The position numbers were made by a program, and so were the translations under genes. DNA of 64,000 bases from Eledone cirrhosa (lineage: Eukaryota), in NCBI GenBank assembly GCA_964016885.1, contig OZ024743.1, positions 85,684,001 to 85,748,000 of the forward strand. Direction: 5' to 3'. The first letter of the stretch is position 1, and every line of letters starts with the position of its first letter. The notes under the pieces are model-generated. The model saw only the letters and a program-made list of their open reading frames with translations. It was not told where the DNA came from and made no database searches. Of this stretch, positions 1-54,963 are shown one piece after another.

Positions 1-535
1 AATCTCATAGATGCCATATTATATGAGATAATTATGTAAAGTAAAGCCTTTACCATGAAAATATAGTAAATATAGAGTAATGTAAATGCTAAAGGGTTAA
101 TGAATAATTTTGAGGGATTTACTAAAATTATTAACTTATTTCATTATTAAGATATTAGTTTTATATAAGGTTCTATATAAAATTATGTTGTAAGATTTTA
201 ATATAAAATTGGAAACCTTTAAAATGGGTGGTTTTATTTCATAGAACCAGAGCTGGTCTTGGCTGGATTGGTAACTAAAAGGTTAAGTGTTCTTAAAATA
301 TCAAGAGATGACATACATTGACTGGTTGTTCCTATGTCCATTTCATGTTGACGCTTTTACCTGTACACAACATTTCATATTGAGTGGTGGAGTTGGTGGT
401 GGTAGTACTGTTTATTGATTAGATTGTTTCATTGGTTTAAATTCATTTCAAATGACATCCTTTTCAAAGATTTGGTGGCCTCTAGCTTAAAACCTACTTT
501 TGTCCTCTTTCAGAATTCTGTTGGAGTGAGCTGCA

Positions 536-2032
536 ATGATGGAACAGATTTCGAAGCTGAGTGAACCGCCTATCTATTTATGTGACTCTCTCACACTGCC
601 TTGTGACAACGATGACAGCTCTATGTTGCCTCTCAATGGAGTTGTTGCCGTAGTATATAACTTCTACCAAGCATTGATCAACAATGATCTGAATGCTGTA
701 GAAAAGCTTCTTGAATCTACTCCAACTGTGGTAAATCATTGCTTCACTGAGCCATTTGTTCAGTCATGGCACCTTGGTCAGGCCGGCATTCATATTATGG
801 TGAAAAATGGAGTTGTCGAAGGCCTTCATCTTCTAATTCGTTATGGTGCTGATGTGAATCTACCAGATAAAAATGGTGATTCAGCGTTGCATCTGGCTGC
901 CATGTATGCACATCATATGTGCACCAAAGTATTGTTAGACTATGACAGTGCAGTGAAGGATGTCATTAATAAACAAGGCTTAACACCTTTACTGAGGGCT
1001 TTGCTCTGTTACCAGAGTGGACTGAAGCTCCAGTTCTATAAGACTCTCAAGTTTCTTGTTGACTTTGGCTGTGATTGTAATTTGTGCCCAAACATCAATC
1101 TGTCACCACTTTACCTGGCCATTGTCAAAGAAGATCCTGCTTTAATATGTCTATTAGTGAAAGGTGGTGCTGATGTGAATGCTGTGTATAAGAATGGACT
1201 CACCCCTCTCTTGTTAATTGTCTCTAGTAAAACAGTGAACTATGCAAATCTGAAACTACTGTTGGAGGCAGGTGCATCTCCAGACATCTGCAATGTCGAT
1301 GGTTCCACACCACTGCACATTGCAACAGCGAAAGGAGACATCAAAACTGTACTTCATCTGTTGGCAGCAAAAGCTAATTTAAACATTAAGAACAATCTAG
1401 ACGAGACACCATTGTGGATTGCTGTGAACGATAATAACTACGATCTCGTTAATATCCTCATTCAGTTTGGAGCAGATATCAATTACAGAAATAAACAAAA
1501 GAAAGTTCCTCTTGTTTTGTTACCAATTCTATCTCAGTCGTTGAAAATCTTGGAACTTCTTCTAGAGAGTGGCGTTAGGATACGTACTGAAGGTAAAATG
1601 GGACAGACACCGCTCTATTTGGCTGTTGGCTTGAAAAATCTCTATTTGATTCGACTTCTGCTCAGAGCTAATAGCCAATTGAACATTCCCTGTAATAAAT
1701 ACTGTTTATTAAAACCAATGACACCGATTCAATATGCATTTGAATTAGGTGACGAGACTATTATAAAACTGCTCATTCGTGCTGGATGTCCAGTGAAGGA
1801 TATCTGGCTCCGGAAGCAAAATCTTCCTCCTGCATTACAGGCCCAGCCAGACTTGGAGAAGTGGGTGCTTGATTACATTCACTCCCCATGTTCTTTGGCT
1901 CATTCAACACGCCTTGTAATTCGACATATGTTTGGGGAGGACCTGCAGGCGAAGCTGAATTACCTGGCTGCCCAGCGCAAATTGCCATCTCCTCTCATAA
2001 AGTATATCATGTTAGATGATCTGGTTTCATGA
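536..2032 (+). CDS. Ankyrin repeat and SOCS box protein (ASB family), single coding exon
   Basis: 498-aa ORF with repeated ankyrin motifs (GDSALHLAA, GLTPLLRAL, GSTPLHIAT, ETPLWIAV, GQTPLYLAV). C-terminal SOCS box SPCSLAHSTRLVIR...LPSPLIKYIML. Polypyrimidine tract and CAG acceptor at 497-513; in-frame TGA at 527-529 before the ATG. Confidence 0.92.
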   Translation: MMEQISKLSEPPIYLCDSLTLPCDNDDSSMLPLNGVVAVVYNFYQALINNDLNAVEKLLESTPTVVNHCFTEPFVQSWHLGQAGIHIMVKNGVVEGLHLLIRYGADVNLPDKNGDSALHLAAMYAHHMCTKVLLDYDSAVKDVINKQGLTPLLRALLCYQSGLKLQFYKTLKFLVDFGCDCNLCPNINLSPLYLAIVKEDPALICLLVKGGADVNAVYKNGLTPLLLIVSSKTVNYANLKLLLEAGASPDICNVDGSTPLHIATAKGDIKTVLHLLAAKANLNIKNNLDETPLWIAVNDNNYDLVNILIQFGADINYRNKQKKVPLVLLPILSQSLKILELLLESGVRIRTEGKMGQTPLYLAVGLKNLYLIRLLLRANSQLNIPCNKYCLLKPMTPIQYAFELGDETIIKLLIRAGCPVKDIWLRKQNLPPALQAQPDLEKWVLDYIHSPCSLAHSTRLVIRHMFGEDLQAKLNYLAAQRKLPSPLIKYIMLDDLVS

Positions 2033-17287: not shown

Positions 17288-18840
17288 TTAACGCTTTAGT
17301 GTTGAAAGCGCCCGAAATTATTTCCCCTTCATTTGTTCAAACCGCCTGAAAGCGCCCAAAATTATTTCCCCTTCATTTGTTCAAACCGCCTGAAAGCGCC
17401 CAAAATTATTTCCCCTTCATTTGTTCAAACTGCCTGGAAGCGCCCACACTAAAATATAATTCTAAAAATAAACAAACCATCATCAAAATCTCGTCAATTC
17501 CAGACTACTGCGGGATTAGGCCTTTACCACGAAAATTAACACTTAATATAGTGAAACAAGTTAAAGCAATACGTGTTTTTTTAACTTTGAAAGTGCAACA
17601 AATTTTTTTTGTATCAACATGGCTTCTGAAAGTAGCGATACCGACTTTGAAAGTTTTACACAAGACGACATTCAGAATGAACAAGAAACAAAAGATAATA
17701 TTAGTGATATATCATCAAATGAATCTGATGTTTATATTTCTGAAATTTCGTCCGACGAAGATTGTTATTTTGAAAGTGAAAGCGAAGCAGATCTCCAGGG
17801 CGCCATTGAAGATATTTCAGCAACATGGTCGAAAAATACCACACGAATACATGTTCCCAATTTTGTTGAAAATACTGGTCCACAGCATATATTACCTCCC
17901 GATGCTAAAGCACTGGATTATTTCTTTTTGTTTTTTCCACAAACTTCGAAGTTGTGGCTAAAGAGACGAATCGATATGCCCAACAGCAGATTTCATATCG
18001 AAGAAAACCTGATCAGTTATGGCGACCTACAGATGCTGCGGCGATGCAAGCGTTTTTTACCATAAACATTATGTTTGGTATAAAACAATTTCCAAGACTG
18101 TGGAATTACTGGAGCACTGATATAAGGTTTAGCGACCCTTATATATCGAGTATTATGCCAAAAACAAGGTATTTGAAATTAAACCAATATTTGCATCTGG
18201 TTGATACTTCAAATGCCCCTGGTAGAAATGATTTAAATTATGACCCTCTGTATAAAGTTCGACCATTAATTAAAATGCTCTCGGAAAAATTAAAAATATA
18301 TGGGTGGGGTTGACAAATCCGACCAACATTGCGCCTACTACCCAGTTGGACGCTCTGGGAAGAAATGGAGATATATCTTGTGGTTTTTAGTGAATTTAAC
18401 CATTGTGAATTCTTTTATTGTATTCACTAAAAGCCACAAGAATCCGCCACAACCAAAGGACTACTGCCACATGAAATTTTGTGTAGACGTTGCATCTCAG
18501 CTACGTGGAGGATATTCTTCTCGTAAACACAAAGCTGGGAGAAAGTCGAAATTATCTGAGGTAAACACGGAAAATATTGATTTTCACAAAGTGGAGAAAA
18601 TGAATGGGAGGAGGAAGGTTTGCTGAATGTGCTCTTTGCAAAAGAGAAAAACTGTTAATGGTTAGGGAATTCAAACCACGTTTATGTGTTCATTTTGCAA
18701 AGTGCCATTATGTAAAGGCTGTTTTGGCCAATATCATGATAGAAATATTGTCTGACAATATTGAAAAAAATATTTTAAAAATACATTGGAACACATTATA
18801 TACAAAAAAACACCTGCATTCATCTGTATCACACCTATTA
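17288..18840 (+). mobile_element. piggyBac-like element, frameshifted and internally deleted transposase
   Basis: Starts at TTAA. Acidic N-terminus, ETNRYAQQ, YDPLYKVRPLI, MGGVDKSDQ..YYP and Cys-rich C-terminus. The region holding the first two catalytic Asp residues is missing. Right end not located. Confidence 0.85.
17303..17445 (+). repeat. 44-bp subterminal tandem repeat (3+ copies) of the piggyBac
   Basis: tgaaagcgccc.aaattatttccccttcatttgttcaaaccgcc at 17303, 17347 and 17391, partial at 17435. Confidence 0.9.
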
Positions 18841-19017
18841 AGGTGAAGGTGATGGTGGTGGAGATGATAAAAGTTTAATTAGATTAACCTCATTTCTTCC
18901 AGTATTTAGAGAGGTGGGCTTCTAACGTCTTCTTTTGGCTCTCTCTATCAAACACACATTAAAACACTCTCTATTTATCATACATGCATGCTCTCTCTCC
19001 CTCTTTCTCCCCCCCCC

Positions 19018-19290: not shown

Positions 19291-20173
19291 TCTATATATA
19301 TATAATTCTTTGTCTCTCTCTCTCTCTGTCTGTCTGTTCCTATGCATTCTCTAATGGCTGGACCAAATCAAATTATTAGATCCCGGGAGTGTCAACATGT
19401 AATTTTTATTTTCATTTGGATTAAAACAATATAAGATTTTATCTAAAATAATATTTTTATAGTCAACTATAGTAAACCACCACGACTCACATTTTGTATA
19501 TGTGTGTGTGTTTGTGCGTTTATGTATGTTAGGCCTCAGAGAATTAAACACACACACACATCTACACATGCATACACATAATGTGTGTGTGAGTGTATGT
19601 GAGAGTGTAGACGGCACATTTTGTATGTGTATGTCTGTCTTAGTATATGTATGTTAGAGTGTATTTGTGTGAGAGTGTATGTGTGTTGACTGACATACCA
19701 ATATTTTCTTTAGTCAACTATAGTAAACCACCACCACTACACATACAGATACATATGTAATGACAAACAGGTGTGCGTCAATATATGTCTGTGTGTGTCT
19801 GTCCTAGTATATGTGAGAGTGTATGTGTGATCATTTTTATTTTCATTTGGATTAAAACAATACGACGGCACATTTTGTATATAAATATGTATGTCTGTGT
19901 GTGTGTTTGTGCGTTCATTAGGTACGTTATTAAATACACACACACATCTACACATACATGAATTACAGAATGAATATTGTTTACCCTAAGGTGCTTCAAG
20001 ATTGACAAATTTTCATTTCTAAATTCTATTATCATTACAATTTTGATATTTTAAAAATAAAATATAGATATTTTGAAATAATTATGAGAAAAAAAAACAT
20101 ATCTTCATATTTATTGTTTACTAATCTGAATAAGAATAGCAGTAACCCGGGCAACGCCGGGTAATTCAGCTAG
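19291..20173 (+). mobile_element. Non-autonomous Helitron-like element
   Basis: 3' GC-rich hairpin acccgg-gcaacg-ccgggt (20145-20162) followed by CTAG|T (20170-20173). 5' TC start and (TCTG)n microsatellite near 19291-19335; the 5' boundary is approximate. Confidence 0.65.
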
Positions 20174-20223
20174 TATATATATATGATAAAGAACACAAGA
20201 GCGTCTACAACATCAAAAGATTT

Positions 20224-20279
20224 TTATTGGCTTACAATGTTTCTTCCTTACGTAACCATAGGATTCTTCAGAGCTATAA
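20224..20279 (-). ncRNA. Type I hammerhead ribozyme
   Basis: Minus strand: ttatagct CTGAAGA a-tcct...agga-a GAAAC att GTA^ agccaataa. Confidence 0.7.
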
Positions 20280-22062
20280 AAGGGGTTTGATTGGTGTTAT
20301 GGACTCTACCAACCAAACATTCAAGAACAAAGAGTAAAGAGAGTAAAGAGCAAAAGCAGGGGACGATAAGTCTAATTTTGGTGCGGGAGGGTGGGGTGTG
20401 GGTCCTTGTTTACTAGCTGTGGTCATATTCATTCCCGGTAGTCGAGTGGTTAGTGGAGTCATAGATGGGGTGGCGTCGATAGTAGGGTGCAGAGGGTGTG
20501 CAGAGGCTACACACACACAAAGGGCATACAATATATATATAACGGAGGAGAAAGTACATGAGGTAATTAGAAATGGAATAAGAGTAATAATAATAATCTG
20601 TAATTAATAATGTATAATAAGGCATGGGGTAGATTACACTATAATAAGGTATAAAAGTAAGAATAAGGTAAAATATAAAGGAGGATAAGAGTGAAAATAA
20701 GAATAAAGATAAAAAAATATATATATAAAAAATATATAGAGAATATATAAAAAAAATATAAGCAAGTATTAGAAGGGAAAAACAATGTAAAAAAACCGAT
20801 TTTGTCAAATAAAGATATTATAAATATGGGGGGAGAAAACAGGATAGAGAAATATAATCAAATGTGATTAGTTGAGAGAATATAAGATGATAATAGTTAT
20901 GTCAAGTTTAGACATCTTAATAATAAATAATCTGTATATCAGAGTTACACATCCTTCAATTCACTTGCAAGTTCAACCCACGTGGCATAGTCCATTGCTC
21001 ATCTGTGCGGTCGTGTGCGTTTGTGTTTGACACCACAACGGATGCACAAGTTCGTAAATTTCAATGCAGATAGAAATCTATTTTTGCTCACCCAAACATT
21101 GACGGAGGATCTAGTATTCCTAGTTCATTGCCGACCCAATATGTGTGTGGTGTTATTTTGGTCGCTCAAATCAATCACTTGGTTCAATATTATGGAGTAT
21201 GGTTTTCTGGTCTTCGTTACACTATCAGTGGTTGTATATCTCGAAATCACAAGGATCACAGTACTCTGGTTTGGTGTGATTATCGGTCATCCAACTATGT
21301 TGTCGGTGGTTGGATTCAATTCTATTGCCCAGAACGTAGAACTTTGGTGTTGATTGAACATTAACGAAGCAGAGTGAGATCGCATCTGTGGTACAAAACG
21401 GTCCGCAAGGAAATTCTTCGTCTTCGTTTCATCCGGGTCTAGCAGTCACGTGCAAGAACCGCTACGTAGTAATTGTGAAGGTAAGCGGTCAAGATAGTAA
21501 CTGACCGAAAATTTTCTTGGGAATTCAGACAGGCATGACAGGTACATTTAGGTCAGCAGTTTCTTCATGTGTATGTGTGTCCGATACACACAGACACATA
21601 TTTATATGTATTTCAACTCAAAAAATTCAATTGATTCGCTTATTGATATTATATCTCTGTTGCTCCGATTTGCATGTTGTGATGTTCTGGTCGTGTTTAC
21701 CATTCACTGTGTTTTGCCATTACCTTGGAATGTGATGTTTTGGTCATCAATAGTCCGGCAAGCGCATTCCTCTCTTATATTGTGGAGAATGGTGTTCTGG
21801 TCCTCAGTAAACATTTGGGTCAGCAGGAGGGGTGGTGGTTCTCAGTTTCAACTGCGACAATACATGTGTTACATATCGTGCTCCTCTCAAAGAAGAGTAT
21901 TATAGGAGGAATTCATGCCAAACACCACATATAGAGAAGACTTCTACAGAAAAAATATATATACATATACACACACATACACATATATACACATATACAT
22001 ACATATATATATATACATATCACATATACACACACAATATATATGTATATAATATATATATA

Positions 22063-22684
22063 TAAATGTTTCTTCTCTCTTCATAATGTATTTTTAACTC
22101 TGATACTGGTTCAGTCTGGTTCAACCGGATTGGTCTGTCCCAGTCATTCATTGAGCAACATCGGTGAAGTTGGCACCCTTAACTCACGGTTGGGTGCGGA
22201 TGCATTCATGTATATGTGTGTGTCCGCATGTATCTGTGTGTTTCTAAATATATTGTTAATAACTCCCTCTGGTCGAGCAATCTTTGAAGTGTGGGGACTG
22301 CTGGAAAGCTTCCATTACTCATACTTCTCGCCTCCTTCACCACCTCTTCTACGGCTTCGATATAAATACCCCCTCCGCCTCCGTGGTATTTTCTTCGGGG
22401 TTATAAGAGGCTTAGCTCTGTTTCTCGACCGTTATATCGCGTGACTATCTCCCCCTCCGCCTTTTGGGATTCTTTCTCACGTCGTGTAGACGCGTTCTTG
22501 GGACTAGTAAAATGAGGTATCCTCTTGATAAGTCGGCAGACCTCGCAGGGACTCTATATCTTTATGATGTATTGTTTTTGTTTATGCCACGAAACTACGT
22601 AGTCGAGGAATCTAGGAGCAGTTTAGGTATGATACATTTTATTACTAATTATATCTAAATGTTTCTTCTCTCTTCATAATGTAT
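22063..22684 (+). mobile_element. Non-coding ~620-bp retrozyme-like element with 29-bp terminal direct repeats
   Basis: taaatgtttcttctctcttcataatgtat at 22063-22091 and 22656-22684. Flanked by (TA)n and contains an HHR. Confidence 0.7.
22520..22609 (+). ncRNA. Type I hammerhead ribozyme, U3-A8 core variant with long stem II
   Basis: tcctc TTGATAA gt(c)ggca...tgccac GAAAC tacgta GTC^ gagga. Confidence 0.7.
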
Positions 22685-22951
22685 ATATATATATATATAT
22701 ATATACACACAATATATATGTATACAATATACATATATATGCATGTATGCATGCACACATATATACATACATACATACATGTGTATGTGTGTGTGAGAGA
22801 AAAAAGGAGAATACACAAACACAAACCTTGTAGGGGACTGTTCCACCCATAGGCTACCTATCTATCTGGGTTATAGGTTGGGGGGGGGGGGAAGTTATAG
22901 TCAAGGAGGGGTATGTCTAGGTGGGGGTTGCGTAATATATATTATTTACGT

Positions 22952-24990
22952 CTATGTGCTAGGTTTAAAATAGAAGAAGGAACTCAGGATTTTGTGTTGG
23001 CAAGAGGAGAACATTTCCAATTTCCTGTTAAGCAGGTTCAGTTTAGAGTGTATTATGGCATGGCACTCTAGTAAACACAGGTCACAACTCCCGCTCTGCG
23101 GTCGGTATGGCGTGGATCTAGTAAGCTTTCTCCAAAAAAGTTTGTATGGGGTATTATTATTTTTTAAAAAGGAGATGTATCCCGCCAGTGAGGTGGCATT
23201 CTTATGTCTATCGTGTCTAAATGTGCACATATGCGCGTTATATCTAGTTTTAAATGTATTGGACGTTGATCCTATATATGTTTTGGTAGAGTTGTGTGTG
23301 GTTACGTCACATGCATATACGATGTTTTTCATGAGGCAAGCCCCCCTTAGGGGACAGTTACTACTCTGCCTACAATTGCAACTGCGGGTTCGATCAGTTA
23401 GCGTACCTCCCGAACTTTGGTTACTAGCATTATCACTAGGTGCCTCTATATCATTAGATGGTTCAGTGATGCTATTATGTTGCCTATTTTCCAGTGTAGT
23501 CGGTTGCTGGTGGTTAACCGCCATTTTAATTGTTTCGAAACCTTCCCTAGTTTTCCTAATGTTCGTGCGTGCTAGGTGTGATGTGAGGTTAGGTGTGGTC
23601 AAATAGGATAATTTAATCACGTTTTTGTTAATTATGTTGCGATATCTATTGCCTGGTGGGAAGTTTTTTTCTAATAATGAGAAGAATACTCTGGGGAGGT
23701 TAGTGAGGACCTCAGAGTTAAAAGGTGGGTTAAAATACATGTTTTTCCTTCTTCTATTTTTCTTATCTGTGGGGTGAGTCTCATTATTGTGCGTACTATT
23801 TTGTAGGGTTCCATTATTAACGTTAGTGGCGTTGTCTGTTTTGCTTATGCCCGGATGGTTTATATTCATGGCATGATCATTTGCTGCTTTAGAGTTGTGG
23901 TGAGGGACTCTAGTATTTGTGGCCATACTATGTGTGATTATGTTGGTAGGTTTCACACTCATGGTTTAGGAGGCCTTATGTATATATGATAATCTATTCC
24001 CGTAACCAGATTCTGCTAGGGCCTTGTCATAATACTCTGCATTGGAGTTGAAGATACTCTCATTACAGGACAGTCTGCTAATTCTATTAGAGACTCCTTG
24101 GGAATAGCGTTTAGGACTGATTTGGGGTGGTTGGAGCTGGCGTTTCCATATGTTAGTCTATCATTAGGTTTATGGTAGGGTGCAAATGTTTTAGTTTCTA
24201 GGTCAAGGGTGGCGTCTAGGAAGTTTACTGTTTTGTCATTTGCATCTATGGTAATACTTAGATTAAAGCTTTTAAAGAACCCACGTAACTGTTTCCTAGT
24301 TCTTTCTATATTGCACTTTTTATACTCGAGAGTGAAGAGGGCGTCATCACGATATAAGCCGCCCTTCAGGTGCAGTAATTTCTCATGTAACTCCTTTAAG
24401 AGGTACAATCCTACCAGGTCCGTTACTTGTGCAGAGTCACTAGATCCCATTGTGATGTTGAAGTATTGGGCGTATTCTTGCGGGTCCACAATTCGTCCTC
24501 AAATGTGATTATCGTTTTCCGGGCCGCAAGAATGACATCAATTTGGGACCTAGTGAGGTCACTTTTCTGCATGGCCATGATTAGGGCCTTATTAAGGAGT
24601 ATGGGGGAGATTGAGGTGTAGTACGCATCGATGTCGAATTGTATAAATTTAAGGGATTTATGGTTGCTAAGGCTTGAGAACCATTTCAAAACCTCTTCCG
24701 TATTCTCCCATAGCTCTAGATTTATTTTCCTCCTGATGGTAGGTATAACGGCGTCTAAAATTTTCTTACTGATAATCCCTATATCTGACTTCGATGGGCT
24801 AATTAATCTAACAGAGGGTTTACTAATGAAGTCAGCCTTATGGTCTTTAAGGGTGAACCTGGGTTGCCTAGGGGTATATGGTTGGGTATACTTTTCCAGG
24901 CCTAGTTTATCCACTATGGTGCATGCTTCCTTATTAATTTCATCTAGGTTTGCGCTTGTTGTCTTTTTATAGTTTCTATTTAATTCATTG
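22952..24990 (-). mobile_element. Penelope-like element (Naiad-type), 5'-truncated and frameshifted RT + GIY-YIG
   Basis: FIQFDIDAYY, NITMGSSDSAQVTDLVG, GLYRDD, VNFLDATLDL, YFNPPF, CNCR..CPL.G.CL..NIVY..YIG, CDLC..E, LLNRK.E..C.H across three frames. Confidence 0.9.
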
Positions 24991-25350
24991 TATATATATA
25001 TGTATATTTCATCTTAATGTATTTGTTTATTTCCTGTCCTGTAAAACATCTTTTAACAATGGTTGCAGATATATTTGTGAGCAGAAAATATGTTGGGACC
25101 TTTCTGGTTGATTCCCAATATGGTTTCTTTTTGGTAAAATTACTGCTATGTTTTTCACACTTGATGTAATCATCCCTAAGTGATATATTTTTGAAATTTG
25201 TTTGTATGGTCCTAATTTGCTCTTAATAACATGTGTATCTATTAATTGAAATATTGATAGTATCTATGTTTGATTGAATTTTGATCTCAATTGTAAACTA
25301 ATAAACACTTCTTCAAGAATTTTGGTTGAATTTCTCTAATTGTAACTTTG

Positions 25351-28213
25351 ATCATCATCATCATCATCGTTTAACGTCCATCTTCCACGCTTGCATGGGT
25401 TTGGACGGGAATTTTCCCACTTGAGGCAAGATTGGTTGTCTTGCTTGTATAGGACTGTCTGGCGGGTTTTCTACAGCTGGATGCCCTTCCTAACACCAAC
25501 CACGTTTACAGTGTGGACTGGGAGGATTTTACCGTGTTACCTTCACGGCCACATTACAGCGTGGACTGTGTGTTTTTTTGTCGTGACACCTACACAACCT
25601 CATTTATTTGGGACTGGATATTGTGGTACCAACATAACTTTACATCGAAAGGGGTGGTGTGGATGGGGTAGGGGTGGTGGGGATGGGGGTAGTGGGACGG
25701 GGGTGTATTTTTGTTAAGAGGTACCTACTGACTGTAGGTTTCGCTTTGTACTTAGGCAAGGCGGGTCTTCTGTATTACTGTATAGCGCCAAAGATCTCGG
25801 TCCAGTGACATTGTCTTGGAGAGGTGAAAGTGCGTGAGGTCGCAATTTATCAAGTTGTCCCAGGTTTTTCTGGGTCTGCCTACTCCGTGGCTACCGTCTA
25901 TTTTTATCGCCCTGCAGTTTTTTATACAGCTGTCGTCTTTCATGCGCATCACGTGACCATACCAACGTAGTCTTCTCTCGAGTAAACAACATCTGATCCC
26001 TCTTATTCCTAATTTCTCCCTTAGTTCATTTATGCTTTACCGTTCACGTATATTACTATTACGCATCCAGCGGAGCATGCAAGCTTCGTTCCTCTCCAGT
26101 CTATGTATATCCTCTGCACACAATGCCCAAGTCTCACTGCCATGTAACATTACTGTTTGTATGCAGGCATCATACAGCCTGCCTTTCATTTTTAGAGAGA
26201 ACCCTTTAGCGTCCAATAGTGGTATAAGCTCTCTGAACTTTTTCCATCCCGTTCTGACTCTAGCTACTGTACTTTCAGAGCACACTCCATCACTGCTGAT
26301 TTTGTCACCCAGGTAACGGAAGGTGTCCACTATTTCTATAGAACCATCTTTGCAATGGAATGAGCTAGTATTCTGTGGGCACTTGCTGTTACTTATTGCA
26401 CCAGAGCACTGGCCGCATATAAAATCTATATTCTTAGTTAGCTTACCTGTGATCCCACTACATCTTTTATGCATCCATACTTTGCATTTTGGACATAAAA
26501 TGGAGTTTCTGCCTACTCCTTTCCTACACACTAAGCATGGCCATTTCCCAGATGGGACCAGTGCCCTATTTTCCTTCCTACAAACTAGAACTTTAGTCTT
26601 AGACAGGTTAATTTTAAGACCTTTTGATTCTAGGCCATGCTTCCATGTTTGGAATTTCATCTCTAGTTCAGCCATTGTTTCAGCTATGAGCGTTAGATCA
26701 TCTGCGTATAGGAGTTCCCATGGGCAGCCGGTCTTGAACTCCTCTGTTATAGCCTGAAGGGCAATAATAAATAGTAGGGGGCTAAGGACAGAGCCCTGAT
26801 GAACACCAACTTTTACGCTAAAATCTTCACTATATTCGTTGTTAATTCTAACCTTGCTGACTGTTTCTTTATACATGGCTTGTATAGCTCTCACAAGCCA
26901 TTCATCAACACCTAGTTTTCTAAGGGCCCACCAGATAATGGAGCGGAGCACTCTGTCAAAGGCTTTCTTCAAGTCAACAAAAGCTAAGTATAGGGGTTTA
27001 CTTTTAGCTAGGTACTTCTCCTGTAGTTGTCGTACAATGAAAAGAGCGTCTGTGGTACTTTTACCTGACACAAACCCGAACTGCATTTCATTTAGATCAA
27101 TTCGCTCTCTGATTAGTTGCGCTATTACTTTTTCTGTGACTTTCATGACCTGGTCGATTAATTTAATGCCTCTATAGTTTCCCCTATCTAGGGCATCTCC
27201 TTGTAGCAGTTAATGATGATGCTGCTCGCCAGTCCTTCGGAACGACCCCATTCTGTATGACTTGGTTTACTATCCGTGTGACCATAGTGTGTCCCACCGT
27301 TCCAGATGCTTTCAGCATTTCAGCAACTATTTCCGAAGGCCCAGCCGCCTTACCCGTCTTCATATCTTTGATTGCCTTACTTATTATACTACCTTGGCCT
27401 GACTAACACTGCTGGTCACTCTATTGGATCGATGTGGGGGAGACTGTCTTTCTCCCATTTATTCTCCTCATTTAGTAGCCTTTCATAGTGACACTTCCAA
27501 GCTACCTTCTTATCAGCGTCAGTGATGGCAAGTACACCATCATCATTAAGGACACACTTCTCCCCAACAATATCACGGTTTTCCTTGACACATTGCCTAG
27601 CAATCCTGAACACCTCCGTTTTTGGTCCTCGCGTTGTAGAACATGCTTGAACTTTCTTTCCTCTGCTTCCCTTCTTGCGAAGTACATTTGTCTCCTAGCT
27701 TCCCTCCTGGCCACTTGATAGTCTTCTCTACTTCCCCCATCCCACCATACTTTCCAAGCCTTCTTTTTGGCCTTAATTGACTCCTCCACCTTACTGTTCC
27801 ACCACCAAGTTACTCTCCTCCTGCCTATACGTCTGCTCCAGCCACAGATTTCATCTGTCGCCTTCAGCAGGTTAGCTTTCAGGAATTTCCACTGTTTCTC
27901 TATATTGTACGACCCTAATTGCTCTTCCTTACTATCAAAAGCATCAAGTAATATGCTTTTAAATTTATTACTGGCTGTGGGGGTCCTTTAGCTTCCATAT
28001 TTTTCTCCTGAGGATAGTCCTCTTCTGCTGTTGAGTACGTCTCGTCTTGATTATGAGTCTATGTTGAGGGAGGGATTTAGTGTTTACAACAGACACTCTG
28101 TCACGTCTTCTGGTAAGGATATAATCTATCTGGCTGGTGTGTTCCCCTGATCTATAGGTGATCAAGTGATTGTCTCGTTTTTTTAAGTTAATGTTACAGA
28201 TAGTTAGGTTATT
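25351..28213 (-). mobile_element. RTE LINE, 5'-truncated, several frameshifts
   Basis: RT motifs VDLKKAFD, GVHQGSVLSP, LYADD; PHD-type finger; 3' UTR and (TGA)n tail. Colinear with 48077-50960. Confidence 0.92.
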
Positions 28214-31719: not shown

Positions 31720-34410
31720 CTGCCTAGACAAACACTACTGGAATTTCAAAAAGAATACTGGACCAGAAACACATATAGTAATCTATTCGACATTACTATG
31801 GGCTCAAGTGATTCTGCCCAAATTACCGATCTTGTGGGCCTCTTTCTTCTATTTAACATAAATGCTTCTTTTCCCCACCTTAAAGGTGGTTTATATCGTG
31901 ACGACTGTCTTCTTCTTTCCAATAACCTTAGCCTATCGGAAATTGAAAAAAATAAAAAACTTATTAGAACTTTCCTCAAAGACTATTATAGTCTAGATAT
32001 TACATTTGAAAACACAAGTAAAGTAGTTAATTTCCTTGATATAACATTAGACTTATCTACGGGTATCTACCAACCTTACCATAAACCTAACCAAAACTTA
32101 CATTACATACACTCACAATCTAATCACCCTAAATCTATCCTTAAAAACCTAGCATATAATATCTCACTCAGAATTTCTAACCTTTCGTCTAACCAGGTTG
32201 TATTTGATAAAAATGTGACTTTTTATAACGAAGCTTTAGCTAGAAGTGGCCACAAAAACAAATTAGTATATATACCTTGTACCAATAACACTACAAACAT
32301 ACAACCAAATATCACCAACAAACACCAAATGAAATATACACACCTAAATGCCACTCACACTATACCCAAAAATACCAACATAAAACTTAATTTCTCTAAC
32401 TCTTCTAATATACAATATAGTAACTTTCAAAAAACTATTCATCCTAATACTCCAATATATGTTAATAATAAAATTCCTAATAAACAGGCTAAAACACCTA
32501 AATCAATGAATCTAACTAAAAATATGTGTGATGAAATCATTAACAATAATTCTCTTAATAAACATCAGGATACATCCTATACAAATAAAAATAATAAACA
32601 ACATCGAAACCGTAATAGACGAGTTACTTGGTATAATGCTCCATTTAATCTACAAATTAAAGATAATATACCTAAAAAATTTTTTACTATCCTAGAGAAA
32701 AACTTCCCGCCAAACCACAAATACCATCAAATTTTAAATAGATCAACGGTTAAATTCTCCTACTCAACAACCAAAAATATACAACAAAATATAAGTGCCT
32801 ATAATGCATATAAATGTAAAAAAAACATGAATATACCACCAACACATCAAACTAACCATAATACTAAAATAAACCACAGCAAACCACCATCTCATTCACA
32901 TACAACAAGTCGTAAAAAATCCACACCTTATTTGACTATCTCCTCTGATACAGCATTCACGAAAGGTTGTAACTGTAGAAACAAAGCAAATTGCCCATTA
33001 AAAAGAAATTGCCTTATTAATAACATAGTATATAAATGTAAAGTTAACACTAAGGACTCAACTTATTCATATATAGGAGCTACTTCTAACCAATTTAAAG
33101 TAAGATTTAATACCCACAAACACAGTTTTAAAAATGCCGCATTAGCTAATACAACATCTTTAGCTGAAATAATTAATAATTATAGAAAGAGGAATATAGA
33201 TTATAACCTGACCTGGAGTGTGCTCAAAAGGGCCACCCCTTATCAAAATAATAGATATGAATGTAGATTATGTTCCCAGGAACTTTTTGAAATAATGAAA
33301 TCTAAGGATATCCTATTAAATAAACGACAGGAGTTAATTATATCATGTAATCATAAACTGAGAAGAACTTTTAAATATTATAAACCTAATTAATATACAT
33401 TTTAGAAATTATTATAATAACACTTTTTTTAAATTAGTTAACCTATAATTAATATTCTACTACTAATGAACTGCATAATATTATTTCCCTTTTACAGCTA
33501 TCTTTTCCTAAAATTTATACCAATAAGTATACATATAAACTATTTTAATTTCAGATTATGATTCTATGTTCCTTATAATCTATATAAATTTGTTATTTCT
33601 CACTAATAAATTTACCCCCCCCCCCCCCCAAATAATAATAATAATTATTATTTTTTTATTTTCCCTTCGTTTTTAACAGCACTCTTCAATTACATCTAAC
33701 TCTTATTTATCATATCTATATGAATTAATATAAATTTATCAATATAAATATACCTATTAATTTAATTAATTTATTTTCTTTATAGATGTAAATTCCTTAT
33801 GTTTTAAATAAGATTGATATTTTTCACTAACACATTTACCGTAAAATTTTACTCCTTAGATATTTACATTGGCATTATTCTTTTATAACATCAATTTGTC
33901 GTGTACCTTTTACCGACCTGACCTATTTTCATCCCTAAAATATTCTTTTCATTCATCATACTCTTTCCATTCAAAACTGAAATCTGCCTTCCTCTACCCC
34001 TAAATTAAAGTTCTATTACTACTATTCTACCATCTTGACCACTTACTACCTTTCTATTGGTCAATTCAAAACCTGTTCCCAAACAGACCTATTATATTAA
34101 ATCTTTGTTGTTTTTTTTCAATAAACAAATATCATTATTTCTGAAGACAGCATATATATGTGTAGGTATGTATATTCCCTCTGATAGTTTGTAAACATTT
34201 TACATAGATCTGTATGATATACATACCAACACAAACACATATATATCCTAGAAACGATCGTAAAATGATGAATCTTTTAATATAAGGAACTGTTTCTTTG
34301 TTTTTATTCATTATTTTTATTAATTTATCTTGACTCTGTTTTCCTGTATTTTTCATCGGAAAAAAAATTTTTGAATACATCTCTTTTCATGATATTCGGA
34401 TTACATTGAG
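31720..34410 (+). mobile_element. Penelope-like element (Naiad-type), 5'-truncated, open RT-C/GIY-YIG frame to 33393 plus 3' pseudo-LTR
   Basis: FDITMGSSDSAQITDLVG, GLYRDD, WYNAPF, CNCR..CPL..CL..IVY..YIG, CRLC..E, LNKR.E..C.H. HHR in the 3' region. The first ~60 aa of the listed ORF are probably non-coding. Confidence 0.9.
34132..34271 (+). ncRNA. Type I hammerhead ribozyme with ~100-nt stem II
   Basis: tcattattt CTGAAGA [atatatatgtgt/acacatatatat and ggtatgtatat/atatacatacc pairings] GAAAC gatc GTA^ aaatgatga. Confidence 0.78.
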
Positions 34411-34417
34411 TATATAT

Positions 34418-37218
34418 ATATTTATTAAAATAACAGATTAAAGTTTAAGCAAAGAATCGCTGCTTTCACCCTTAACGGGATCTTCTGAAACTAACAAAGT
34501 CAATCTGTAAACGCAGAACTGGATATTTCAAAAAACGTTGCAACCGGAGGAAGACAGGAAGATGATACTTTGGTTCGTGGTAACGTTCGCTGGCAAAGAA
34601 CGGGAAAAAACGAATAATACGTCATTAATAGGAGCGGTGAAAAACAATTACGCGCAAAGACAGAACCACATTTATGGTATAAAAGAGGTCGAAGACTAAT
34701 GTTCTCTTAGGTGGTGCATAGAGACGTTCTCTGGCAATGAACGAAAAAACGAAGATAATAAGTCATATGTGGAGCGTGGAGAACAATAGCACGCAAAGAC
34801 AAAACCACGTAAATGGTATAGCAGAAGTCATAGACTAAAATTCTAACTAGAAGACCAAATGAATCTCCGCTATTAAGAACAAAGTAAATAAATACAATAC
34901 AGAAGTAATAGAAACAAATAAATACATACACGCAAACAGATACGTACATACACAAGCATACACAAAACCTTACTATAGGTATACAAAACCACGCACATAT
35001 AAATATGTGTGTATGTGTGTGTATGCTTGTGTACAAATAAATAAATAATTATATAAACGTATATAAGTAAATAAATACGTATATAATAAGCGCACACGCA
35101 TACCTACATATAAATACACGAATGTTCGGAGACGTAAGTCAACTAAAACAAGAAGTACACATATACACACACCCACCATACGTACGAACCTGCATACTCA
35201 CGCAGACACAAAACTCCCGTATACACATAGCCAAACCCTAAATACCAGAATATGTAAAAATTATACGCCATGACAGTCAAATATACGTACGAGAAGGTAT
35301 ACATACCTTCACAAAACTTACGGGTAATATATACTTACCTATGCAAATAAGTAAAGGAATAAACAATGAAGCTCTTGCTCGAAGTGGATTTGTCGATAAG
35401 GTAGCATATACAGAGTACGAAAATAGACCTAGAAGAAATAGATCCCGTCGCATTTGTTGGTTTAACCCACCATATAATATGGAGGTGGCCACACCATTAG
35501 CTAAGATCTTTCTTTCCCTTATTACGAAGCATTTTCCCCCTACACATATAGTAAAATTTTTAATAGAAATACTATTAAAATTTCTTACTCTACGACTCCT
35601 AACCTTGCACATAACATCACAGCTTCAAATTTAGCTAAACTACCTAGCCGTAGGAACACGTGCAACCCTGTAGTTAGTACGAACTGTAATTGTAGGAATC
35701 GGGCTGATTGCCCCCTATCCAGGAAATGCCTCTCTAGTAACATTGTCTACAAATGTAAGGTTGTAACGCCCACGTCCCGTAGGGCCTACATAGGGTTAAC
35801 CGCCAATAGTTTCAAGCAGCGTCTTTACATGCATACCCATTCTTTTCGTTACCCTCTAAGAAGGAATATGACGTCACTTTCAGCTTATATCTGGAGTCTA
35901 AAAGACAACCACACCCAATATAAGTTACACTGGGAGATCCTAGCTAGGGCTAGATCGTATAACGGAAATAAAAGACCATGTGACCTCTGCGCCGCTGAGG
36001 CCCTGGAAATACACTACGCCACAGACCACATCTTAAACAAAAAATCTGAGGCAATTTCGGCTTGTAAACATAAATTGCACAAAACTTTCCTGTATTACAG
36101 CCCCACGTTATACCCTAACGGATAGCACGATCTATACGTGGATATTTTACGTCTTGATGTGGGAGCTAAGTATATGTTTTGTTTATTCCTTTACTTATTT
36201 GCATAGGTAAGTATATATTACCCGTAAGTTTTGTGAAGGTATGTATACCTTCTCGTACGTATATTTGACTGTTATGGCGTATAATTTTTACATATTCTGG
36301 TATTTAGGATTTGGCTATGTGTATACGGGAGTTTTGCGTCTGCGTGAGTATGCAGGTTCGTACGTATGGTGGGTGTGTGTATATGTGTACTTCTTGTTTT
36401 AGTTGACTTACGTCTCCGAACATTCGTGTATTTATATGTAGGTATGCGTGTGCGCTTATTATATACGTATTTATTTACTTATATATGTTTATATAATTAT
36501 TTATTTATTTGTACACAAGCATACACACACACACACATATTTATATGTGCGTGGTTTTGTATACCTATGGTAAGGTTTTGCGTATGTTTGTGTATGTACG
36601 TATCTGTTTGCGTGTATGTATTTATTTGTTTCTATTACTTCTGTATTGTATTTATTTACTTTGTTCTTAACTCTGTAGCGGAGATTCATTTGGTCTCCTA
36701 GTTAGAATTTTAGTCTACGACTTCTGCTATACTATTAACGTGGTTTTGTCTTTGCGTGCTATTGTTCTCCACGCTCCACATATGACGTATTATCTTCGTT
36801 TTTTTCGTTCATTGCCAGAGAACGTCTCTATGCACCACCTAAGAGAACATTAGTCTTCGACCTCTTTTATACCATAAACGTGGTTCTGTCTTTGCGCGAA
36901 TTGTTTTTCACCGCTCCTATTAATGACGTATTATTCGTTTTTTCCCGTTCTTTGCCAGCGAACGTTACCACGAACCAAAGTATCGTCTTCCTGTCTTCCT
37001 CTGGTTGCAACGTTTTTTGAAATATCCAGTTCTGCGTTTACAGATTGACTTTGTTAGTTTCAGAAGATCCCGTTAAGGGTGAAAGCAGCGATTCTTTGCT
37101 TAAACTTTAATCTGTTATTTTAATAAATATTTGCTCTACGGTTCTTATATATTTGATATATATTTTCCTTATCGAGCCCTCTTTGGATTTTAGTCTTCAA
37201 TTTTATTATTATTACTAT
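34418..37218 (+). mobile_element. Truncated PLE with ~950-bp inverted pseudo-LTRs
   Basis: 34418-35366 is the reverse complement of 36179-37130. Between them is a GIY-YIG C-terminal fragment (CWFNPPY, CNCR..CPL, YIG, CDLC..E). Unpaired 3' tail at 37131-37218; (TA)n on both flanks. Confidence 0.9.
37041..37114 (+). ncRNA. Variant type I hammerhead (A at position 4, CUU triplet); mirror copy at 34434-34507 (-)
   Basis: cagattga[ctttgtt]agttt CAGAAGA t-ccc gttaa ggg-t GAAA gca..tg CTT^ aaact ttaatctg. Confidence 0.6.
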
Positions 37219-39339: not shown

Positions 39340-42300
39340 TCATTAACAGGTGTGATGCAGATGAATGCAGGTGTTTTTTGTATATAATGTGTTCCAATGT
39401 ATTTTAAAAATATTTCCTTCAATATTGTCAGACAATATTTCTATCGTGAAATTGGCCAAAACAGCCTTTACATAATGGCACTTTGCAAAAGGAACACATA
39501 AATGAGGTTTCAATTGGATACCCTTTAGCAGTTTTTCTTTTTTGCGAAGAGCACATTCGGCAAACCTCCCATCAATGTTCTACACTTTATGAAAATCAAT
39601 ATTTTCTTTGTTTACCTCAGATAATTATGACTTTCTCCCAGCTTTGTGTTTGCAAGAAGTATATCCTCCACGTAGCTGAGATGTGACATCCACACAAAAT
39701 TTCATGTGGCAGTAGTCCTTTGGTGGTGGTGGATTCTTGTTTCTTTTAGTGAATACAATAAAAGAATTAACAATGGCTAAATTCACTAAAAACCACAAGA
39801 TATATCTCCACCATTTCTTTCCAGGGTATCCAACTGGGTAATATGCGCAATACTGGTTGGATTTGTCAACCTTATCCATATATTTATTGTAGGAGAGGTT
39901 GACTAAAGGTTTACCTTCAGCCCCAAAACCTGGTTGTTGGTTAGAAGATAGGAACAAAATTTGCCGTTTATCTTTGTCCCTTTTTGCACTTGGAGAATGT
40001 CCCCTCTTTTTTAAAATTTTGTACCTTTTATTTCTTGGGGTAGCTCTTCGCGATTCTTCATTATTGAACCGCAGGTGTACGTATTTATGAGGTTTGAACA
40101 AATAAAGGGGAAATAAATTTAGCCGGTTTTTGCTGAAAAAAACCTCACCCAACCAGCAATGGCCACAACAGCGGCACCATCACCAACACCACAAGCAGCA
40201 ACACTCACAAACACAAACTTTGTAATCCCATTGTCTTTCAATTGTCAAATGTATTTTGACAAAGGTGTTGAATTCTGCAGTCGTCTGTTATTAAATGTAT
40301 TCAGGTGTTGAGAGAAGCAAGATTAAAAGTATTTTCGGTCACTCCAATGTAAATTTTTCCCTGTACTTCTGCTTTATATATGAGCTCTGGAAGGCATTTA
40401 TTGTCTAGTGGGCATTGAGTTTGGACTTTACAATTGCATTCCCAGGTTGCCTGAGATGTGTTGTTGTGGAACTGGTACAGTAATGCGCCAGCTTCAGTAA
40501 TCAGAAGAAGGGAAGTAGGCATAAAAGCCAAACTTGCTGTCTTCAATTTGGTATTTGTGCCAACCCTTACCTATGGTTATGAATCTCGATAGAGTATGTA
40601 GCTCAGAGATCAGAGAGTCACTCCAGGTAGAGTAGCTAGTTCTCTGAATTGAGAGATCACAGCTCTGATGCTATTGGAATGTGGTTAGAATGTGTCAAAG
40701 AATCGCTGGACAGATTTTTATGGTCAAAACCAACCGACAGGAGACCCGAGGGTAGACCCCGAGCAAGATGGTTGGATAAAATCAATGAGCTTGGCTGGTC
40801 TCGCTTGGGGATACAGCCGGATCAGTTGGAGACAGCTGCTTCTGACAGTACCCCCTAGAAAGAATGTTTCAGGACTCTGTCCCCCCTGAACCTCTCGGGA
40901 ATAAATGGGCGAAGAAAAAGAAGAATTTCAAATACTCTGAACCTTCGTCTTAATTTTCGAGACAACAATATTTATTTATTTACCCTTATGATAGCTATGA
41001 TTTTATTAGCTTTCCACTTTGGATAGGCACCATGACCTTTTCCTTCTGTCTCCCTTTCTCTCTCTCCCACTCTTCTCTTGTACCTTCTCATGCTTGCTGT
41101 TCTGCTCTCAACTTGCCACCCCCAGGGTTAACACCCTCCTTTTCACTGGCAGAGCATGCTTTATCTCGCTTTCTGATCTGTCTGTTTTTGTCTTGTCGGC
41201 ACACATGCATCATACTAGCAGAAATGTTTATTTTCTGTTGCACGAGCTGGCATAATAAATTACAGTCCTTTCGATTAATTTGTGCAAAACTGCAAGCCAA
41301 AATTTTTGTTTCATTTATAACTTTAATCTTGACTCTTCTTGTAATCCTAATCTCCATTTGTCTTCCTTTCTTTCTTTTTATCACTTCTATGTACCAACAT
41401 ACTCTTTCTCTCAATTATATCTATATTTCATCTATCTGTCACCCACCTCACAACTTTAACCACTTCTATGTGTCAACACACTTCTCTCTCAATCATTTCT
41501 ATATTTCATCTACCTGTCACTCACCTCACAACTTTACTTTTCTCTTCACCAACTGATTTCTGTCCTTAGATGTATTTTTTTTACCTCACTTACATGTTGT
41601 TGTCATTGGCAGCATTTGGCTGTTTTAATGCTATTCCTTGCGTGCAAATTCTTTCTATGAATTTATTTGATTATTGTTTTCTCTTTTATTTTTCATTTTT
41701 TAAAAATTTATTGCAAACAACGTAATCCAATTTTAATTTTTTTAATAAAAAAAAAAAGTGGTATGGAGTGTATAGAACAAGCTGTGAATGACAGCCACAT
41801 CAAGCTTGGATGATATCCAAACATTGAGAGAGAAGAGAGGTGGGAGGAAGGGGTGCTTTGGTGTTGTTCTGATATGTTTATTTAACATATTTCATTCTTT
41901 TTTACCCTCACTGATGGCTGCTAATGGCTGCTGTTTCACAACAAATCAGTCTTTATTTAAGTGATCTATGACTGATTCTACTCCAGCTGTGACCATCCTG
42001 TTTATGGAGACATTTTGAAATATATACTGCCTTTGTTAAATCAGTAGAGTGTGAGTTGAGGATTCCCCATTATTGCACCACAGGTGTACGTATTCATGAG
42101 AGCAAGATCCTCTGCTAGAAGCACTGAAGAAAAAAACGGTCAAATATATGTGTCAGGTTGAGAGTAGAAGGGTTCAATCAGAGAGCACACAACATCGTAT
42201 CCCAATCCATTTTTTCTCTCTCCGTTATGTTTCTTTCCTGTGTAAACATCAAAGTTTGCACAGTATCCTGTGTTCGATTCACAGAGTTCCCACACTTTGA

Positions 42301-43310
42301 TGCCCCATTTGGTTGGTTTAGCTCACACACATTGTCTGAAATGTACCCTACCCTTATACCCAATCATAGCTTCATCAACACTGAGATTTTTTCCAGGTAT
42401 ATATACAGTTTAAAATTTTTCAGATAGCATTTTAATTAATGGACAAACTTTATACAGATGGTCATAATTCAATTCATTTCTACCGGGGGCATTTGAAGTA
42501 TCAACCAGATGCAAATACTGGTTTAATTTTAAATACCTTGTTTTCGGCATAATATTTTATATATAAGGGTCACTAAACCTTATATCAGTGCTCCAGTAAT
42601 TCCACAGTCTTAGAAATTGTTTTAGACCGAACATAATATCTATGATAAAAAATGCTTGTATTTCTGCAGCATCTGTCGGTCACCATAACAGATCAGGTTT
42701 TCCTCGATTTGAAATCTGTTGTTGGGCATATCGATTAGTCTCTTCTGCCACAACTTTGAAGAAAGCCAGTGCTTTAGCACCGGGAGGTAATGTGTGTTGT
42801 GGCCCAGTATTTTGAATAAAATCGGGAACATGTATTGGTGTGGTATTTTTCAACCACATTGCTGTAATATTTTCAATGGCGTCCTGGAGATCTCCTTCGT
42901 TTTCACTTTCAAAACAATCATCGTCAGATGAAATTTCAGAAATATAAACGTCTGATTCATTTGAAGATATATCACTATTATTATCTTTTGTTTCTTCTTC
43001 ATTTTGAATGTCATCGTGTGTAAAACCTTCAAAGTCGGTATCGCTACTTTCACAAGCCATGTTGATACACACAACAAAATCTGTTGTATTTTCAACGTTA
43101 AAAAGACACGTGTTGTTTTAAGTTGTTTCACTATATGAAGTGGTATTTTTCGTCGTAAGGCCCTTATCTCGCTGTAATCTTGAATTGACGAGATTTTGAT
43201 GACAGTATTGGTTATTTTTAGAATGATATTTTAGTGTGGGTGTTGTTGGCCAGTTTGAACAAATAAAGGAGAAATAATTTTAGCCTGTTTTTGCCGAAAA
43301 AGAACCCACC
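39340..43310 (-). mobile_element. Second piggyBac-like copy, decayed and interrupted
   Basis: 5' part 42425-43290 matches 17400-18290. Catalytic-core remnants (DEAMIGYKGR, KPTKWGIK, VYTGK, DRFF) at 42060-42400. 3' part 39340-40090 matches 18295-18840. Confidence 0.85.
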
Positions 43311-51000: not shown

Positions 51001-52340
51001 CTCATTTCTAGTATCAAACCCATAGCCTCCATGGATTTCGTCGTAGCCGTCACAATGTTGTCCAACGTGACCGTTTAGGTCGCCTGCAATAATTATATAG
51101 TCACTGTCGGTTATTTGGGAGGTAGTGAGCATCAGTGTCTCATAGAATCTGTCTTTTATAGTGCTGAGCAGTTCGGATTGGGGTGCGTACGCGGATATTA
51201 CTGTCACCGTAGTTCTATTGAGGACAAGTCTTATTTTAAATATTCTGTCGTTCACTCTATTTACGTCTATTATCTTATCTGACCACTTTTCTGCTACCAT
51301 GATTCCTACTCCACCCAGCCCATTGTCGTTTCCCACCCAGAAAAGCTTATAGCATCGTTTTCTACCCACAATGTATCTAGCAGATCCACCCCTCCACCTG
51401 GACTCTTGAATACAACAAACATCGACCTCCTTACGTTCAAGCATTTCTACAACCTCGTTAGAGCGACCCTTTAAGGTGCCTACATTCAAGGTACCAAATC
51501 TGAAGTTTTGGATTGCGTTTGGGGGGTTGGAAAGGTGGGGAGCGGGGGGAGATGGGGTTAAGTTAGCCATCCGCGGTCGAAACAAAGAGGCATGTTCGCA
51601 TTTTCGTCCTCGAGGTGTGATTGTCTTTAACTTTGGCATTGTCGCTGAGCGTCCAGATTTTTCTCTCTTCAACTCTCCGGAACTCCGTAGTCCTTCCATC
51701 CTACATATCGAAGGCGACCAGGTAAGCGATAGTATAGGCCTCTGGCTTATGATTGGTCCACGTAATAATAATGGTGGTGTGTGGGGGCGAGAGGGAGGGG
51801 TGTTGAGTTGTTAGCGAGAAGATAGGTATAGGTGAGAACCCCGTATTAATGAACAAAAATACAAGATTTGTTTAGTAACTATACGTCAAAAACTTCCGTA
51901 TTTTTACAAGCATGACAGAAATACAAGAGATTTGTTTTGGAAAATACATGGGGAATGGATAGAGGAATAAAAAAAAATGCTATGGGAAGGACTAAAAATG
52001 CTGTTGGAAGGACTGACTATGGAGTTAGGCGTATGTTAGAAGAGGTGGAAAAATGAGTACATTACATTATAACCATGAAATGAATGAAGTTACAGCCACA
52101 AGTTTGGCGAAAGTGAATTACTTTGTCTTATATATGTATCTGGGTTGGGTAGAGAGAGAGAGGGGTGGGTGGTGGTGGTGATTTGACCGCATGTTGTAGA
52201 GTGTGGTGGAGGGGAAGGCGATATTAAGGAGCGGGGATTAGGAGTTTGAGATAGTAACATATATTTGAAATATTGTTAAGAGTTTGAAGTAACAAATATA
52301 TTTAAAATATTTGTATATGAGAAGATAGGTTTAGGTGAGA
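48077..52340 (-). mobile_element. Near full-length RTE-clade LINE (APE endonuclease + RT + PHD-type finger), one premature stop
   Basis: APE motifs TLNVGTL, CCIQESRW, SAYAPQ, GDLNGH, SQVDYIL, SQHRL. RT motifs NYRGIKL, QFGF, LYADD, FRYLG. ORFs 49738-51699 and 48469-49689 are in the same frame. (TGA)n tail at 48077-48095. 5' boundary approximate. Confidence 0.95.
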
Positions 52341-54908: not shown

Positions 54909-54963
54909 ACTGCTATATATATTTCAGTGACAGCCATCTTTGGCTGTGACCTCTTCAGGCAGT
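54909..54963 (-). ncRNA. Type I hammerhead ribozyme (left arm of palindrome)
   Basis: Reverse complement of 55194-55248. Confidence 0.85.

Follow-up and report, generated by a model that had tools for sequence, protein, structure and literature searches.

We report a 622-bp insertion in the 64-kb stretch of DNA analysed here (the window) that is best read as a non-coding, non-autonomous retrozyme dependent on the enzymes of Hydra-clade Penelope-like elements (PLEs), with reverse transcription begun inside a head-to-tail RNA, a reading to which we assign a probability of about 80%. Its unit is abundant and present head to tail in genomic DNA, the step of the proposed cycle that is observed directly; the remaining steps are proposed from the anatomy of this copy, from its relatives in public sequencing runs and from the PLEs that share its genomic setting.

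Anatomy and setting of the insertion

An earlier note on this DNA had described a ~593-nt monomer with an exact 29-bp direct repeat at both ends, lacking an ORF and inserted in (TA)n, and all of these features are borne out (Table 1). The two 29-bp copies are identical, lie at a period of 593 and cannot be extended in either direction, a repeat pair for which the chance expectation, given the base composition, is ~1e-7 in 64 kb. A TA/CA microsatellite adjoins the insertion on each side, and the 5' junction falls at a TA common to element and microsatellite. Neither the frames nor Pfam gave an RT or GIY-YIG ORF, an ORF remnant or any credible ORF within the element, the only stop-to-stop frame over it (21935-22444) having no Pfam match and the ATG frames reaching 78, 48 and 38 aa. 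The CpG-rich interior claimed by the same note is real but mild: the observed/expected ratio is 0.93 versus 0.55 for the window, a value reached by 19 of 163 windows with GC >30%. To the left of the element, 21000-21945 is non-coding and unexplained, with a CpG ratio of 0.83, short repeated motifs and no PLE homology.

The element is also extensively self-paired. For the segment 22605-22684, the predicted fold has an energy of -21 kcal/mol (z -3.63, none of 200 shuffles being as stable), the whole element has a fold z of -4.33 (20 shuffles), and the predicted circular fold reaches -173.9 kcal/mol with 64% of bases paired.

Table 1 Features of the insertion, its ribozyme and related loci, in window coordinates
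Feature	Position	Strand	Remarks
Whole insertion	22063..22684	+	593-bp unit + 29-bp terminal redundancy (1.05 units)
29-bp repeat, 5' copy	22063..22091	+	insertion 5' end; +52 after ribozyme cut (unit coordinates)
29-bp repeat, 3' copy (PLE-type tail)	22656..22684	+	insertion 3' end, 80 nt past cut
Left TA/CA microsatellite (target)	21950..22062	.	
Right TA/CA microsatellite (target)	22685..22795	.	
Candidate target duplication, left copy	22030..22049	+	exact 20-mer; ~33 bp with 2 mismatches
Candidate target duplication, right copy	22705..22724	+	
TG-rich block	22200..22253	+	
Type I hammerhead (predicted)	22520..22609	+	descriptor scan
Hammerhead helix I	22520-22524 / 22605-22609	+	5 Watson-Crick pairs
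Hammerhead core	22525-22531	+	U3-A8 covariation
Hammerhead helix II region	22532-22590	+	59 nt
Helix II extension	22545..22581	+	
Hammerhead G12-A14	22591-22593	+	
Hammerhead helix III	22594-22603	+	fully palindromic, 10 nt
Predicted hammerhead cut site	after C22604	+	
Hairpin across unit boundary	22614..22666	+	19 bp
Neighbouring frameshifted Hydra-clade PLE	22952..25013	-	RT + C-terminal GIY-YIG
Second Hydra-type PLE, 5'-truncated	31549-~34410	+	~1-kb 3' UTR
Hammerhead in 3' UTR of second PLE	34141..34262	+	~100-nt helix II, loopless palindromic helix III
Tandem hammerhead array, another family	61605..64000	+	4 motifs; units 507, 501, 511, 519 bp

Origin of the terminal repeat

The 29 bp are element sequence and not a host duplication, as established by head-to-tail junctions of period 593 and by the hairpin across the unit boundary, in which element sequence upstream of the repeat is base-paired with its first 11 nt. 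The contrary reading, that a 564-bp element is flanked by a 29-bp target-site duplication, was the one that the earlier note had named as incompatible with its proposal; the junctions in two sequencing runs (X21 and X8, described below) and the hairpin contradict it. The exact identity of the two copies would suit such a duplication, as would the statement that retrozyme duplications exceed 4 bp (PMC7229834), but the sequence occurs once inside head-to-tail junctions from two organisms, it pairs with element sequence, and a better duplication candidate lies outside it in the microsatellite; we therefore regard a host origin as next to impossible. The exact 20-mer of that better candidate (22030/22705) was matched by none of 184 control comparisons and its 33-bp form with two mismatches by 11 of 184, and it is possible, though uncertain, that the true target duplication lies there.

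Family copies in sequencing runs

Relatives of the element were taken from four of 23 listed runs (X1, X4, X8 and X21), aligned to 22043-22698 at 85% likeness; X5-X7 and X9-X20, from other organisms with shares of 0.10-0.35, do not enter the evidence. X1 and X4 come from the same study and X1 is possibly the source of the window itself, so they are not independent; X21 consists of raw DNA reads with the same species label from another study, and X8 derives from another organism. The family is high-copy: 1800 contigs of X1 were aligned, with summed depths of 1e5-5e5 against 4-17 for the listed rare contigs (depths that are not copy numbers). A second subfamily is represented by one X4 contig (record 13), with 20 differences over 146 nt.

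Head-to-tail junctions are explicit in four reads and two contigs, a small number because the counts leave out 22043-22071, where two joints and three loose ends fall. Four of the 3198 aligned X21 reads, with two different starts, join 22683 to 22092. One X8 contig (record 17) runs through 22619-22664 and then 22072-22396 at a period of exactly 593, and a second continues past 22683 into the homolog of 22092 onward. The two deepest terminal contigs of X4 (depths 109 and 114) have a 30-nt overlap spanning the junction, as would be expected of adjacent unitigs at k=31, the value taken from the run index description. The lengths of a further 638 and 351 partly aligned X21 reads agree with an AATT-to-AATT fragment of 75-79 nt; judging from their median loose lengths, these reads probably represent a fragment that starts from the AATT at 22647 and crosses the junction, and the left flank in the window has no AATT site that would yield a fragment of 75-79 nt. 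No head-to-tail joint was present among those listed for X1, and the four aligned runs showed neither a second full copy with both ends nor a molecule carrying two hammerheads in succession. Exact-pattern scans of metagenome contigs, viral contigs and prokaryote genomes returned no matches.

The 3' end recurs, since two X1 contigs stop at 22683 plus one base and then enter (TA)n. Another boundary, at 22253, leads into (TA)n in five X1 contigs and 167 X21 reads (six starts), and may be either a second end or permutation of the unit or the mark of a subfamily whose units contain a TA tract. Among the loose ends listed, further 5' ones fall at 22284 and at 22624, the latter with an inverted piece. 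X21 read ends also pile up at 22129, 22611, 22647 and 22230, but these are restriction-site positions and were not accepted as ends of the element: 22647 is an AATT and 22227-22230 a CATG site in the window, and 22129 and 22611 become AATT in listed family variants. The mixed loose ends at these piles look like library chimeras.

Compared with the X4 majority over 22126-22612, this copy shows six A-to-G and four T-to-C changes against two opposite transitions (10 of 12; p 0.02 against an even split, from 40 listed of 106 variant rows). The excess could conceivably reflect RNA editing of a self-paired circle that was written back into DNA, an idea that is weak because editing of both strands would be needed, two of the sites are CpG here, several of the alleles are common to a subfamily and p is 0.02.

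Predicted hammerhead ribozyme

The single internal hammerhead announced by the earlier note was recovered as a predicted type I motif: the descriptor scan finds one on the plus strand, complete, with its core at 22525-22604, and none of 2000 dinucleotide shuffles yields an equally good motif under thresholds that were chosen after seeing the match. Rfam hammerhead models gave no match in the window at gathering score and none among the 31 rows at E<=10 in 20000-26000, where the weak matches are those of microsatellite sequence to miRNA models; the element thus supplies a hammerhead variant that Rfam misses. The catalytic core is untouched by any of the 40 listed variant rows of 106. In the helix II extension, variants common in the family replace G-U by A-U pairing at 22548 and 22569, and a 2-nt deletion at 22563 found in the family lies within the loop of this extension.

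The predicted active fold lies 1.1 kcal/mol above the local minimum, local folding does not stand out at 22495-22625 (z -0.49), and the circular minimum-energy fold lacks helices I and III. The U3-A8 pair is a described covariation of PLE hammerheads (PMC4209133), and PMC3088659 states that a U3-A8 variant has activity in vitro. Prediction does not guarantee activity, however: eight of nine dimers of predicted Xenopus retrozymes did not cleave in vitro (bioRxiv 10.64898/2026.07.22.740005). The U3-A8, long-helix-II hammerhead of the element may self-cleave as predicted.

Penelope-like elements and other loci in the window

The PLE that the earlier note had placed next to the insertion is present, on the opposite strand. 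Its endonuclease carries the CxCX5C linker, CxxC and CxH of the Hydra signature, and its assignment to the Hydra clade is by translation motifs, those of the RT having been compared by eye with the text of Fig. S7 of PMC8557442. It has no recognisable RWK/DKT N-terminal region and no Pfam match, and two homologs were found among 1808 candidates. No hammerhead was found in its 3' UTR, and the element has no homology to any PLE piece in the window. As the neighbour shares no sequence with the element, their adjacency is best read as the result of a common (TA)n target, and this PLE is another occupant of such targets rather than a demonstrated parent.

Altogether, five Hydra-type stretches occur within the window. 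The second PLE (Table 1) ends ~148 nt past its predicted cut, in (TA)n, and its putative hammerhead is built similarly to that of the element, with a long helix II. The sole likeness between the element and the 3' end of this PLE covers 13 of 16 nt, a level reached by 10 of 400 random segments. The apparent link between the element and Hydra PLEs is one of architecture, drawn by analogy from the (TA)n target, the placement of the hammerhead and its build. Another Hydra-type endonuclease fragment (35365-36074) lies between 955-bp inverted repeats (34418-35366 and 36179-37130) of 97.5% identity.

This likeness raises the question of whether an autonomous Hydra PLE, 5'-truncated to its 3' end, could have left the 622 bp as a solo pseudo-LTR with a tail. 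The placement and build of the ribozyme do match Hydra 3' UTRs, and PLE insertions are mostly 5'-truncated (bioRxiv 10.64898/2026.07.22.740005). A truncated 3' end would not begin with its own last 29 bases, though; unit-to-unit junctions of period 593 occur in two organisms and an ORF remnant is absent, and we consider this origin highly improbable, although an autonomous partner with the same 3' end may exist outside the window.

The tandem hammerhead array of another family at 61605 has an internal (TA)n tract in each unit and extends beyond the end of the window; its likeness to the element is microsatellite-like only. Its 5' end is the first base after its own predicted cut site, an arrangement that suggests linear templates. 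Part of the array unit recurs in inverted orientation at ~61524-61550. Elsewhere, a near-perfect palindrome at 54914-55243 holds a further type I hammerhead twice (55199-55243 on the plus and 54958-54914 on the minus strand), with AT-only palindromic helix III and very long TA-rich tracts on its flanks; kilobase-long (TA)n-rich tracts occupy 46.4-48.2, 52.3-56.9 and 59.0-61.6 kb. The window also harbours LINE-type RT ORFs at 26037-27209, 48469-51810 and 56962-60837 (minus strand), in two of which a PHD finger follows the RT and one of which has an upstream APE-like endonuclease, as well as a 500-aa ankyrin-repeat frame at 530-2032 (plus strand) whose closest atlas cluster is mostly Mollusca, a lead suggesting that the host animal is probably a mollusc. 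Pieces of a repeated element (17402-18841, 39343-39885 and 42414-43281; 85-88% identity) are also present, and one of them carries a fragment of a piggyBac-like transposase (PF13843 at 39625-40179).

Proposed copying mechanism and nature of the template

We envisage that head-to-tail arrays give rise to head-to-tail RNA, which the hammerhead could cut and a host ligase could close, and that a PLE protein would nick (TA)n DNA and begin reverse transcription inside this RNA at a constant site, 80 nt downstream from the cut. The 3' end of the insertion probably marks this start. From 22684, as the anatomy suggests, synthesis would have passed through an intact hammerhead junction and beyond one unit and ended 29 nt further on, the stop falling inside the 3' arm of the 19-bp hairpin and the product being joined to the target at the common TA. 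It follows from these copying steps that the start and stop of synthesis would overlap by the 29 bp on a head-to-tail template, and that these 29 bp would correspond to the PLE 'tail'. The 80 nt between cut and 3' end compare with 30-355 nt (median 79, 24 entries) between sense hammerhead and 3' end in Hydra PLEs (PMC8557442 File S2).

A template cut at the ribozyme predicts 80 or 673 nt unless truncated, and 622 are observed. By our own estimates, the chances that the template was an uncut linear multimer are about even, those of a circle are lower though substantial, and a longer insertion that collapsed later is rather improbable. In the last case, an array of n units plus 29 bp would have shrunk to one unit by recombination between units, so that only the phase of the two ends survives in the 29 bp. 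The collapse of direct repeats is textbook behaviour, and head-to-tail copies are common in the family. Solo pLTRs of rotifer PLEs have likewise been ascribed to recombination or deletion (PMC3846280). Nothing speaks directly against such a history, but it requires an extra event and we judge it improbable as an account of this copy.

In its strict form, the circular alternative holds that reverse transcription made exactly one turn of a ligated circle of 593 nt, displacing 29 nt of the DNA it had made. The copy does read across the hammerhead junction and its 5' end lies away from the cut site (622 versus 80 or 673 nt); related animal retrozymes accumulate as circles (PMC7229834), and copying of circles beyond one unit has been proposed for both PLEs and retrozymes (PMC7229834, PMC4209133). 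Several observations weigh on the other side. Tandem junctions exist in DNA, so that linear multimers would be available; the array at 61605 starts right after its cut site, as a cut linear template predicts; and a 5' end within a strong hairpin is sufficient reason for a stop. In vitro, moreover, uncut RNA was the dominant substrate of the one PLE studied and ribozyme mutants inserted normally (PMC11167929), and a terminal extension of 30-40 bp is already a PLE signature (PMC11167929, PMC8557442, PMC3846280). We thus hold the single turn round a circle to be possible but doubtful, and are equally tentative about its general form, in which a 593-nt ribozyme circle would ride on Hydra-clade PLEs, each monomer would record a single turn of reverse transcription with a short overrun, and the PLE 'tail' would be the overrun on a circle. 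Of the earlier note's central proposal, the footprint of a retrozyme circRNA, what stands is the retrozyme type, the element-derived repeat, a template longer than one unit and PLE enzymes as the likely carrier; the circle itself becomes one of several templates that give the 622-bp anatomy.

Novelty and implications

The element is a new family within a kind known from many animals; neither the family nor a retrozyme monomer bearing a tail was found described in the literature covered, which included few subscription papers and no repeat databases. Movement of retrozymes via circular RNA and PLE enzymes has been proposed but is unproved (PMC7229834; bioRxiv 10.64898/2026.07.22.740005), and a single copy does not settle the question of template and mobility. 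The high copy number, fixed 3' end, PLE geometry and measurable 5' ends nevertheless allow the circRNA proposal to be examined in a genome assembly alone, where circle, uncut multimer and cut multimer would be told apart by how copy lengths modulo 593 are distributed. If a circle does ride on Hydra PLEs, monomer insertions would be its dated footprints. Through this element, moreover, a retrozyme is linked to the Hydra clade, which has been little studied.

Comparison with known systems

Plant LTR retrozymes carry type III hammerheads in LTRs of ~350 bp and show a 4-bp duplication (PMC7761336); membership in this group was rejected, the element having a single type I motif that lies outside the 29-bp repeat. 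An autonomous PLE was likewise rejected, as there is no RT or GIY-YIG ORF inside.

The closest PLE parallels lie in the Hydra clade. Hydra PLEs target (TA)n (PMC8557442), and the element shares with the clade this target, the sense hammerhead near the 3' end and a longer helix III, its 29 bp matching the 30-40-bp tail reported from PLEs (PMC8557442). Hydra PLE hammerheads have a helix III of 3-4 bp with a loop of 1-3 nt (PMC8557442 File S2); all those listed in that file combine a C3-G8 core with a short loop 2, whereas the element has U3-A8. It differs further in having no ORF and no homology to the Hydra pieces in the window. Among other PLEs, Poseidon PAc of Anolis starts reverse transcription inside its RNA 85-92 nt past the cut (111-118 minus 26) and has a 30-40-bp tail between two RT start sites (PMC11167929), so that a tail and an AT-rich target are common to both, as is, on our reading, an internal start past the cut; PAc differs in being autonomous, in belonging to another clade and in a ribozyme that overlaps the ORF start, and its start lies in an AC-rich stem-loop of which no counterpart is evident in the element (PMC11167929). 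Rotifer PLEs have a 31-bp tail (PMC3846280). Non-autonomous Chlamys PLEs such as MRC1 are, similarly, PLE derivatives with pLTRs and head-to-tail insertions, but they occur in green algae, generally resemble the 3' end of their autonomous partner and mostly lack canonical hammerheads (PMC8557442).

Animal non-LTR retrozymes span 170-400 nt in the families studied at the RNA level (PMC7229834), and retrozyme units in general 51-972 bp, with monomers common in many families (bioRxiv 10.64898/2026.07.22.740005); at 593 nt, the element exceeds the former range and falls within the latter. Its ribozyme is PLE-like (U3-A8, 59-nt helix II region, palindromic helix III) as opposed to the canonical ones of retrozymes, e.g., in coral, and its 29-bp overlap is of the PLE type, none being described for retrozyme monomers in the available parts of PMC7229834 and bioRxiv 10.64898/2026.07.22.740005. 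Animal retrozymes are known as RNA circles, the element here from DNA alone. With metazoan non-LTR retrozymes it has in common a non-coding unit with one type I hammerhead each, head-to-tail copies, a GC content <50%, strong self-pairing and PLEs in the same genome, and every feature of animal non-LTR retrozymes that was checked (hammerhead, lack of coding capacity, head-to-tail arrangement, many copies, self-pairing and the presence of PLEs) is found in it.
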